A DNA stretch of 9,729 nucleotides from a virus (Duplodnaviria > Heunggongvirae > Uroviricota > Caudoviricetes). Made by a program: the position numbers. The stretch spans positions 1-9,729 of the IMG/VR virus record IMGVR_UViG_2675903368_000011; one strand, 5' to 3'. Positions 1 through 3,000 of this stretch are shown here, one piece after another (within the stretch, counting starts at the first letter, position 1; each line of letters starts with the position of its first letter).

Positions 1-3000
1 GCGTCGAACTGATTAGCCGCATCGGGCAGGAAGCAGTAGACGAAATCGAATCAAACCATAACCGCCATCGCTGGACTGTCGAAGAGTGCAAGGCGATCAA
101 GGCAGAGTACCAACAGAAACTCAAAGACCTGCGAAACAGCAGAAGTGAGGCTGCATGAATATCTACGAAAGAATTGATGGCAGCAAATACCGAAATATTT
201 GGGTAGCTGGCGACCTGCACGGATGCTACACGAACCTGATGAACAAACTGGATACGATTGGATTCGACACCAAAAAAGACCTGCTCATCTCGGTTGGCGA
301 TTTGGTTGATCGCGGTACAGAGAACGTCGAATGTCTGGAATTAATCACATTCCCCTGGTTCAGAGCTGTGCGTGGAAACCATGAGCAAATGATGATTGAT
401 GGCTTATCAGAGCGTGGAAACGTTAATCACTGGCTGCTTAATGGCGGTGGCTGGTTCTTTAATCTCGATTACGACAAAGAGACTCTGGCTAAAGTTCTTG
501 CCCATAAAGCAGAAGAACTTCCGTTAATCATCGAACTGGTGAGCAAAGATAAAAAATATGTCATTTGCCACGCCGATTATCCTTGTGATAAATACGAGTT
601 TGGAAAGCCAGTTGATCATCAGCAGGTAATCTGGAACCGCGAACGAATCAGCAACTCACAAGACGGGATCGTGAAAGAAATCAAAGGCGCGGACACGTTC
701 ATCTTTGGTCATACGCCAGCAGTGAAACCACTCAAATTTGCCAACCAGATGTATATCGATACTGGCGCAGTGTTCTGCGGAAACCTCACATTGATTCAGG
801 TACAGGGAGAAGGCGCATGAGACTCGAAAGCGTAGCTAAATTTCATTCGCCAAAAAGCCCGATGATGAGCGACTCACTACTGGCCATAGTTTATTGGTTT
901 TCGTAACTGAGTCATTTTATTATTTTATTGCAACTTTTAATCTTTTATAGTGCGAAATAAATGGAGCTGGCATTCATTTCGCACTTTATGTTTTTGTTGG
1001 ACTTATGTTATTTTGATTGAATTCAATTCAGTTAAAAAAAGAAGGTGATTGCTCCATTTATAAATGAATAGTCATCCCCTGTCTTGAATTCTGATGTTAC
1101 TTTATTAAATGCTAGTGTGAAGGCTACAGGTGCATACCCAATTGTTGCGCCAACTTGATATTCATCAACAGTTTTGTTTAGCGATACTGTTGTTTGTTTC
1201 GTCTGTATTGTTTTTCCTTCGAGAGTATAGTTGCGATTGACATCTCGTCTTTCCATACCTGCAAAAATCTTGTATTTGAATCCGCTTGTATCGGACATAT
1301 GCATTAAACCACGGGGAGCCAGCAGACCAAAGCCATTATCCGAATTGAAGGTTTTATCATTACCAATGGCAATGGTTGCGCCATATGCTACATATTGAAA
1401 TAAGTTTCCAGTAACAGCAGAAACTTCAGGGTATAATCCAACATTAGCACCTAAAATATCCATACTTGGTGTCATGGATAGCATCCCTTTTACAGTATAA
1501 CCGTAGCGATTCTCTATTTGATCATCCCATGCATGATATTTTTCTGCCCCAATAATCTCATGAGCTTTATTTTGTACTTTCTGACCGCCTGCGTCGGGGC
1601 CAACAACACCTATGTCAGTACCTAATCGATAGCGAATCCAGTCATTCGCAAGGGAGTTCCATTCAATACCAGTGTGAGTGTATGCACTAAAAGCTCTGTC
1701 TCCAGTTACAGCTGTGTTGTGTCTTTTATTACTGCCTGATGGAGAGTAAATATCTTGCGCAATATGGAGAGATAATTGGCTCGAGTCTGAGATATCGTGG
1801 CTATATCCCAGAAATAAGCCTTGTGAGTAATCATCTCTGTTTTCATGTTTATTGCCATAAATATCATTAAGTATTGGTTGAAACTTCCCTGCATCATCAT
1901 TTGCTAATGATAATGCAAGGCTGTTCGCGATAGCTGAACACGTGGTAAATGACAGAGCAATAAAGACGCCAGCGATGACACTTTTTTTCATATGTTATTG
2001 TCTTCCTTTTTTTTGAATGGTGCGCGTATTTTACATACATGAGTTTGTAATACAAGGTGCGTAATCAATATGATGTTTTATAATTGCGTGAGACAATTGA
2101 TTTATTCGTTTTTTATTGCGGTTTTTATTATCTTTTAATGTAACGGTGTTTTTATTAAGTGTGTTTGCGTGGTGTTTTATGTTTTTTATGATTTTTATTT
2201 TATTAAATTTAAATGCATTAGTAATGGCTATTCTATATAGCAATATAAGAACTGTTACAAAAAAAGGGGGGCAATTACAGGTAGTTATGGATGATGAGTG
2301 AAACAGATATTGGAGAACCGGGGAATGAATGATGTCTGAGTCTTATATATCAGAACTCCTTCGCTGTCGCTGGGGGCTCCTGTGCTTATGTCGTTTCCCC
2401 GATTCGGTTTTGAACGATTACCGAATGTTGAAGAATTATGCCAAAATATAGAAAGGATTTACTGCATGAATACCCAATATTTACAGTATGTTCGTGAGCA
2501 ACTTATGGCAGCTACTGCTGACTTGAACGGAGCAACGAAAGGCCAGCTCGAAGCCTGGCAGGAGCATGCACAATTTGATACTGGTACATACAAACGAAAG
2601 AAGCCGCGCATTCTGGATGTGGTAACTGGCAAGATGATTACGCTGGATAATACGCCGACTTCCGGTAAGCAGTCGTACGCAAAAGGTTCATCCATTGCTT
2701 TGGTCAGCCCGGTTGAATTCTCAACCTCTTCATGGCGCCGCGCGATTTTGTCTCTCGATGAACATCAGAAAGCATGGTTGCTTTGGTGTTACAGCGAAAG
2801 CGTTCGATGGGGGCATCAGGTCACCATAACGCAATGGGCATGGAGCGAGTTTAAAGATTTGTTAAGTAACAGAAAAATTGCAGGTAAGACACTGGATCGC
2901 CTGAAGACGTTAATCTGGCTGGCTGCACAGGATGTGAAGAGCGAACTTGCAGGGCGTGAGGCCTATGAATACCAGACACTGGCATCATTGGTGGGAGTGA

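Follow-up and report, generated by a model that had tools for sequence, protein, structure and literature searches.

A length-polymorphic A7G6 tract between the divergent lpxR and ylcG-Q units of a lambdoid prophage module

The tract and its setting

The present analysis concerns a short homopolymer tract, AAAAAAAGGGGGG, in viral DNA assigned to the Caudoviricetes (IMG/VR record IMGVR_UViG_2675903368_000011). The window, by which we mean the whole stretch analysed, comprises positions 1 to 9,729 of this record (9,729 nucleotides). The tract is present exactly at positions 2259-2271, where an A run is followed by a G run (A7G6), and it is flanked by ctgttac on the left and caattac on the right. 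It lies between two divergent units: lpxR, whose product is an outer-membrane lipid A 3′-O-deacylase, and a rightward unit formed by the small open reading frame (ORF) ylcG and a Q82-like antiterminator gene, Q (Table 1). lpxR is a moron gene, that is, an added gene which is dispensable for phage growth. Among isolates of Escherichia coli the length of the tract varies. We regard it as probably an ordinary and near-neutral hotspot of replication slippage in non-coding DNA, situated at the Q-proximal edge of a phage-434-type lpxR moron.

The non-coding region between the two units measures 337 bp and has 29% G+C. Its composition is uneven: the AT-richest core, from ~2030 to 2258, has 15-28% G+C, and the DNA directly to the right of the tract has 37-42%. 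The tract is the Q-proximal (right-hand) border of the AT-rich region upstream of lpxR. Its start lies 268 nt from the ATG of lpxR and its end 57 nt from that of ylcG. A preliminary description, made from the sequence alone, had reported an A7G6 run in an AT-rich region between divergent LpxR-like and Q-like genes, about 60 bp upstream of a 40-codon ORF. This placement is confirmed, with Pfam matches for both genes, and the ORF is ylcG.

The chance expectation for such a tract was calculated analytically with a first-order Markov model of the window. The model predicts 0.0005 occurrences of A7G6 per window on either strand, and 0.003 of any (A/T)7 run beside a (G/C)6 run. Scaled to a genome of 5.5 Mb, the same expectations correspond to ~0.3 and ~1.5 occurrences, so that one such tract in a genome-wide scan is statistically unremarkable. 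Lone G6 or A7 runs occur in the window at or below expectation (for runs of six G or C, 2 observed versus 3.7 expected).

Length variation and its tempo

The locus is carried by 620 of 5,426 complete E. coli genomes. The carriers include O157:H7, O55:H7, O26, O103, O111, O121 and O145 strains, the enteropathogenic E. coli (EPEC) strain E2348/69, and others. Alleles were counted in these 620 genomes by exact-match queries of 64-68 nt, one per allele. A7G7 is found in 442 genomes, A7G6 in 91, A7G8 in 68, and A7G9 and A6G6 in 3 each; the 13 genomes left by difference hold other alleles. G7 is thus the modal state, and the window holds a minority allele, G6.

The same alleles appear in independent material, Sanger-finished genomes included. 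Gapped pattern scans recovered A7G7 (6), A7G6 (2) and A6G6 (1) from 9 metagenome contigs, and A7G7 (25), A7G6 (14), A7G8 (5), A6G6 (4) and A8G6 (1) from 49 IMG/VR contigs. Among older reference genomes, Sakai and TW14359 hold A7G7 and O111:H- strain 11128 holds A7G8. When the window is aligned with five complete genomes, every indel falls inside the tract: A7G6 in the window, A7G7 in EDL933 and G5295, A7G8 in O111 strain 110512, A6G6 in F2_81 and A6G8 in CAU16175. The comparison among strains which the preliminary description had proposed therefore finds a tract that is not invariant, in the complete genomes and in the independent contigs alike.

This variability is specific to the tract as compared with the neighbouring T runs. 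A 66-bp control segment with T7 and T8 runs, located 250 bp away, shows no difference among 614 of the 620 genomes. Similarly, of 670 best matches to a coding G6 run (5224-5229), 617 are exact. Two independent assemblies of EDL933 carry the same tract allele. Elsewhere in the window, the T8 run at 3220-3227 is also length-polymorphic, with T8 in 288 of 630 genomes, mostly T7 in the remainder (O157:H7 is mostly T7) and T9 in the O55:H7 strain DEC5D, which indicates that homopolymer variation is ordinary in this prophage. It coincides in position with the terminator that the annotation of phage 434 gives downstream of Q, with a G+C-rich stem at ~3204-3229, and the length of the corresponding U-tract could affect termination of the Q-antiterminated late transcript.

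The tempo of change was estimated on a sample of 49 loci, each taken with flanks of 1.25 kb (left) and 0.9 kb (right), which together gave 2,164 ungapped aligned sites. Three haplotypes that are identical over all 2,164 sites each hold two or three tract alleles: A7G7 (11), A7G6 (2) and A8G6 (1) in one, A7G6 (4) and A7G7 (2) in another, A7G8 (4) and A7G7 (1) in the last. The length change is therefore recurrent. Fitch parsimony on a neighbour-joining tree of the 49 loci requires 12 changes of the tract (with 12 for the G run and 2 for the A run). On the same tree, 75 of 80 single-nucleotide polymorphism (SNP) columns need 1 change, with a maximum of 3, and random assignment of the alleles requires ~22 changes, with a minimum of 17. 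Hence the tract is at least 10 times more changeable than any flanking site and still keeps phylogenetic signal.

This signal is also visible in the distribution of alleles over lineages. G8 occurs in almost all of the O111:H8 genomes listed (dozens, from several accession series) and in an O157:H7 PNUSAE cluster, and G9 is restricted to serogroups in which G8 is the rule (O121, O111:H8). All O55:H7 genomes listed hold G6, as does the sorbitol-fermenting O157 strain 493/89. O55:H7 is the ancestral lineage of O157:H7, and O157:H7 holds mostly G7, with G6 and G8 sub-clusters. The allele series looks stepwise. The alleles are largely clade-stable, which would fit slow stepwise slippage with a low switching rate better than fast phase variation. 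In mutation-accumulation experiments with E. coli, the indel rate rises exponentially with run length, and G·C runs of 7-8 bp are hotspots (PMC8510543). Accordingly, the alleles G6-G9 and A6-A8, and their recurrence on identical flanking haplotypes, support the suggestion in the preliminary description of length changes through slippage. The caveat given there, that 6-7 nt is short, was apt, as the stability of most alleles within clades suggests infrequent switching.

The lpxR moron, its regulation and predicted signals

The module belongs to lambdoid prophages of the Sp3/CP-933K type. Its counterpart in Sakai is prophage Sp3 (lpxR = ECs_0814, Q = ECs_0815), and in EDL933 it is CP-933K, or O-island 36 (Z0955) (PMC4699771, PMC2907692). 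The intergenic region of the window is at least 99% identical to those of Sakai and EDL933. Phage 434 (OL657226.1) matches the module with 99.7% identity over 701 bp, the match of which our comparison with this phage consists, and carries the allele A7G6. In phage 434, an N-terminal remnant of a Q gene of the lambda type stands on one side of lpxR, and the pair formed by ylcG and a Q82-like Q on the other. In the window, the corresponding remnant keeps the first ~24 codons of the lambda-type gene, which indicates that the lpxR-ylcG-Q82-like block replaced an older Q. On the other side, phages and prophages with a rusA-ylcG-Q arrangement and no lpxR (phage 82, DLP12-like) match the window only rightward of the junction given in Table 1. 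The tract therefore belongs to the lpxR segment, ~45 bp inside its right-hand end.

The designation of lpxR as a moron agrees with its LpxR Pfam domain, its opposite orientation, the AT-rich DNA upstream of it, and its position in the nin-Q region, between a truncated lambda Q and ylcG-Q. A scan of a genome-contig collection for LpxR relatives returned a single locus, in Citrobacter sp., with 73% identity. Inspected by eye, the region upstream of that gene is unrelated and contains no such tract, and a scan of the same collection with the tract pattern gave no match. The tract was also considered as a scar or duplication left by moron insertion. The flanks 800-900 and 2240-2340 are not homologous and share only a 12-nt chance repeat, and this candidate was rejected.

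Table 1. Coordinates of the tract, the surrounding genes and the predicted signals in the window
Feature	Position	Strand	Remarks
N-terminal remnant of lambda-type Q gene	817-888	+	Left side of lpxR insertion; same arrangement in phage 434
lpxR	1032-1991	-	Pfam PF09982, E = 7e-40; RefSeq annotation; equivalent of Z0955 / ECs0814
Divergent non-coding control region	1992-2328	no strand	Between lpxR and ylcG
lpxR-proximal sigma-70 candidate TTGTAT-16-TAAAAT	2055-2028	-	Score 11.0; prediction
Best rightward candidate TTGCGT-16-TATGAT	2165-2192	+	Places tract at ~+60 to +72 of a ylcG-Q leader; prediction
Distal leftward candidate GTAACA-17-TAGAAT (2258-2230) or TTGTAA-19-TAGAAT	2230-2260	-	Weaker; prediction
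A7 run	2259-2265	+	Alleles A6, A7, A8 in isolates
G6 run	2266-2271	+	Main variable part; alleles G6, G7, G8, G9
Right-hand junction of lpxR moron	2315-2321	no strand	Start of homology to lpxR-less phages
ylcG small ORF	2329-2451	+	40 codons; RefSeq: YlcG family protein
Q antiterminator, Q82-like	2466-3155	+	Pfam PF06323 (Phage_antiter_Q), E = 9e-92; phage 434 annotation

Several further elements of the window deserve mention. The interval that separates the Q remnant from the 3′ end of lpxR contains, at 946-988, an inverted repeat of 18 bp with a 7-nt loop and 89% complementarity, after which TTTATGTTTTTG follows on the plus strand. Judged from its sequence, this element resembles a rightward intrinsic terminator, which would keep non-antiterminated early transcription from entering lpxR in the antisense direction. 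Downstream of Q, the region encoding a SASA-family (nanS-p-like) esterase consists of two overlapping ORFs, 4626-5600 and 5597-6526. Its alignment with the single coding sequence of 1,851 nt in E. coli strain 2013C-4991 fails after ~5579, and downstream of this point the window has a mosaic relationship to that strain's prophage. This suggests a junction of mosaic or recombinant origin rather than a plain frameshift. Beyond the esterase-like genes lie two tRNA genes (6576-6648 and 6752-6825), an arrangement also found in the Q-to-lysis regions of lambdoid phages of the Stx type. Finally, the segment 7599-7771 gives a strong Rfam match to STnc100 (101.5 bits). According to a 2026 preprint, STnc100 is related to the prophage small RNAs PasD1 and PasD2, and in over 98% of cases a distance of at most 10 kb separates PasD from Q and lpxR. 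In view of this link in the literature, a PasD/STnc100 RNA was considered as the feature at the tract, and it was dismissed as it maps to 7599-7771 instead.

Expression of lpxR has been described for the orthologous locus. The gene (Z0955 / ECs0814 / E2348C_0684) is activated by Ler, 5-fold in the enterohaemorrhagic E. coli (EHEC) strain EDL933 and between 21- and 35-fold in EPEC E2348/69; for its neighbour Q (E2348C_0685), 2-fold Ler activation is listed in late-log EPEC (PMC3891560). Furthermore, lpxR requires both Pch and Ler and lowers phagocytosis via lipid A 3′-O-deacylation (Ogawa et al. 2018, as summarised in PMC6393859), and it has been placed within the modulon of the locus of enterocyte effacement (PMC9263587). 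The locus may be of the H-NS-silenced and Ler-activated type, for which AT-richness (15-28% G+C) is seen here and dependence on Ler and Pch is drawn from the literature on the orthologous locus. As to a mapped promoter or start site of lpxR, the literature on Z0955 and ECs0814 gave expression data only, and the accessible literature on the lpxR regulatory region makes no mention of the tract or its polymorphism.

Promoters were predicted by two independent scans of both strands, with a consensus and with a weight matrix. Neither scan found a -35/-10 pair around the tract on either strand. The preliminary description had proposed that changes in tract length alter promoter spacing, and this part is not supported, as the tract lies inside no predicted spacer. 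The lpxR-proximal candidate would start transcription near 2021, ~30 nt before the lpxR ATG and ~245 bp from the tract. For the distal leftward candidate, the most that T7 of the tract's minus strand could do is imitate an UP element, with the variable C run farther upstream still. The rightward candidate contains a G/A SNP at 2190: the window reads TATGAT, and a perfect TATAAT -10 is present in 5 of 6 aligned strains. Just after this -10 (2187-2197), the O157:H7 strains EDL933 and G5295 have T4 in place of T5. Promoter-like matches are frequent in AT-rich DNA (2 found versus 2.8 expected).

Other kinds of signal were sought at the tract. An intrinsic terminator formed by C6T7 on the minus strand was rejected, since no G-rich hairpin partner lies upstream and the terminator scan returned none. 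Fold signals at the tract are weaker than those of shuffled controls on both strands, with z-scores of +0.9 to +1.2. Rfam searches of 1900-2500 gave nothing at the gathering score, only chance-level snoRNA matches with E > 2. The tract lies outside any signal that we recognise.

An inverted repeat of 10/11 nt, with 242 nt between its arms, joins 2005-2015 (CCTTTTTTTTG, in the Shine-Dalgarno/T8 region of lpxR) and 2258-2268 (CAAAAAAAGGG, in the tract). It is probably due to chance in A/T-rich DNA, and additional C residues would not lengthen the pairing. A role of this pairing at the lpxR Shine-Dalgarno region was likewise rejected, as it needs a transcript that starts upstream of the tract, and a promoter carrying A at -11 was not detected there. 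A four-codon mini-ORF (ATG GAT GAT GAG TGA, 2287-2301) occurs just after the tract, with AGG 5 nt upstream, and its string GATGATGAG(C/T)GA recurs at 861-872.

Explanations for the variation and comparison with known systems

The reading which we favour is that of an ordinary slippage hotspot. During replication, slipped-strand mispairing would add or remove one base in the G run and, more rarely, in the A run. The resulting +/-1 alleles would be tolerated, since the exact length matters to no ORF, promoter spacer, terminator or structured RNA, and they would then be inherited clonally. The stepwise series G6, G7, G8, G9 would in this way follow lineages and recur independently. A number of points weigh against this reading. 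Near-neutrality of the alleles, like the slippage mechanism, is something that we infer. A single study (‘Z’ strains) contributed around 30 of the 91 genomes with A7G6, and the frequencies may be biased by lineage sampling or by the sequencing platform. The tract is the most length-variable homopolymer found at the locus, a pattern that diversifying selection could also yield. It lies in a control region reported to be activated by Ler and Pch (PMC3891560, PMC6393859), and it stands immediately upstream of the predicted -35 of GTAACA-17-TAGAAT.

Part of these points feeds alternatives in which the variation would not be real or would not concern non-coding DNA. G homopolymers are error-prone on several sequencing platforms, and miscalls in long-read or 454 assemblies could produce length variation. 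Such an artefact would fit the rare alleles A7G9 (3 genomes) and A8G6 (1 contig), single discordant members of otherwise uniform haplotypes and the common origin of the ~30 G6 genomes. It is nevertheless a highly improbable account of the whole: alleles are clade-wide across projects (G8 in O111:H8 and G6 in O55:H7 among the genomes listed), the older references Sakai and O111 11128 already differ (G7 versus G8), the EDL933 assemblies agree, and in 614 of 620 of the same assemblies the T7/T8 control is unchanged, as is the coding G6 run in most of its best matches. A recoding signal is an extremely remote prospect. In the window, a 61-codon ORF with a TTG start (2116-2301) spans the tract and would encode a hydrophobic peptide, and the tract contains what could serve as a canonical -1 slippery heptamer (A AAA AAG or A AAA AAA), or the G run might shift the frame. 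However, in EDL933 a 1-bp upstream difference breaks this ORF into 29 and 41 codons, and the ORF has no Pfam match. Moreover, T-rich DNA yields F/L/I-rich pseudo-peptides by default and ORFs of such length are not rare at this composition. A coding role was rejected on these grounds, and artefact and recoding are both largely excluded.

The remaining alternatives attribute a regulatory effect to the tract. It might tune lpxR through helical phasing, through the edge of an H-NS/Ler complex, or as a UP-like T run of the distal leftward promoter, so that lineages with G6, G7 and G8 would differ in the level of lipid A deacylase and hence in TLR4 stimulation. In favour of this idea, the gene is strongly regulated (5- to 35-fold by Ler, PMC3891560; requiring Pch, as summarised in PMC6393859), the tract borders the AT-richest segment and belongs to the lpxR side and not to the ylcG-Q module, C6T7 directly precedes the predicted -35, and alleles differ systematically between serogroups. 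But the G run, which is the part that varies, is situated upstream of the T run, where it belongs to no core promoter element, the best candidate close to lpxR is distant from the tract, and clade-stable alleles of 6-9 nt are unlike those of classical contingency loci; we consider such tuning unlikely. Alternatively, the tract may lie in the 5′ leader of ylcG-Q, or in an N-antiterminated early transcript, and modulate ylcG/Q translation or the slippage and pausing of the polymerase, and thereby the timing of late genes. The rightward promoter match 70 bp upstream is good, the Q neighbour E2348C_0685 shows 2-fold Ler activation in EPEC (PMC3891560), and AGGGGG could pair with the anti-Shine-Dalgarno sequence ahead of the mini-ORF. 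Against this stand the lack of any predicted structure at the tract, the expectation that a 1-nt change in a leader of ~130 nt does not matter, the distance of 15 nt from the G run to the nearest ATG, too great for a ribosome-binding site, and the position of the tract outside the segment common to other ylcG-Q phages, which together make a leader function very improbable. The broader proposal that G6-G9 form a slow ‘rheostat’ which sets lineage-specific, Ler/Pch-dependent expression of lpxR, or expression of ylcG-Q, in EHEC and EPEC appears quite doubtful. No regulatory role of the tract is demonstrated, and no tested feature supports tuning of lpxR or ylcG-Q.

If the alleles are neutral, the tract provides a fast-evolving marker which could be mildly useful for sub-typing EHEC lineages, and a warning that differences in homopolymer length in this stretch of the prophage are genuine and not to be put down to assembly noise alone. 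If they change the expression of lpxR or Q, slippage would be tied to lipid A remodelling and immune evasion, or to prophage late-gene control, in O157 and non-O157 EHEC. To our knowledge, little has been documented on expression tuning by repeats in E. coli, and a rheostat would be a rare homopolymer-based tuning locus in this species, carried on a phage-434-type moron.

The tract is a new, previously unremarked example of a length-polymorphic homopolymer, a known kind of feature, in a known locus. The lpxR region of Sakai and EDL933 (Sp3 / CP-933K) is the same locus, with G7 there and G6 in the window. The nin-Q region of phage 434 shares the gene arrangement and the allele A7G6, and its record has no feature annotated at the tract.

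Promoter contingency loci provide one point of reference. Well-known examples are the poly-G/poly-C tracts of porA and opc in Neisseria meningitidis, the poly-C tract of fim in Bordetella and the TA repeats of hifA/B in Haemophilus. Such tracts are usually at least 9 nt long, lie between the -35 and -10 elements or beside the site of an activator, and show frequent switching inside a clone. The tract resembles them as a variable G/C run upstream of an envelope-modifying, virulence-associated gene. It differs in its length of 6-9 nt, in its position outside every predicted spacer and in its largely clade-stable alleles. Given this position and this stability, we do not file it as a contingency locus.

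A closer likeness is found in the indel hotspots of E. coli at G·C runs of 7-8 bp in leuP/Q/V/T and serW/X (PMC8510543). In both cases, single-base steps exceed the mutation of neighbouring sites, and in the tract the G run likewise outpaces the adjacent A run (12 versus 2 changes). In contrast to these hotspots, the evidence for the tract consists of natural polymorphism among isolates and not of measured rates, and the tract itself is a compound run, A then G, in a horizontally acquired regulatory region.

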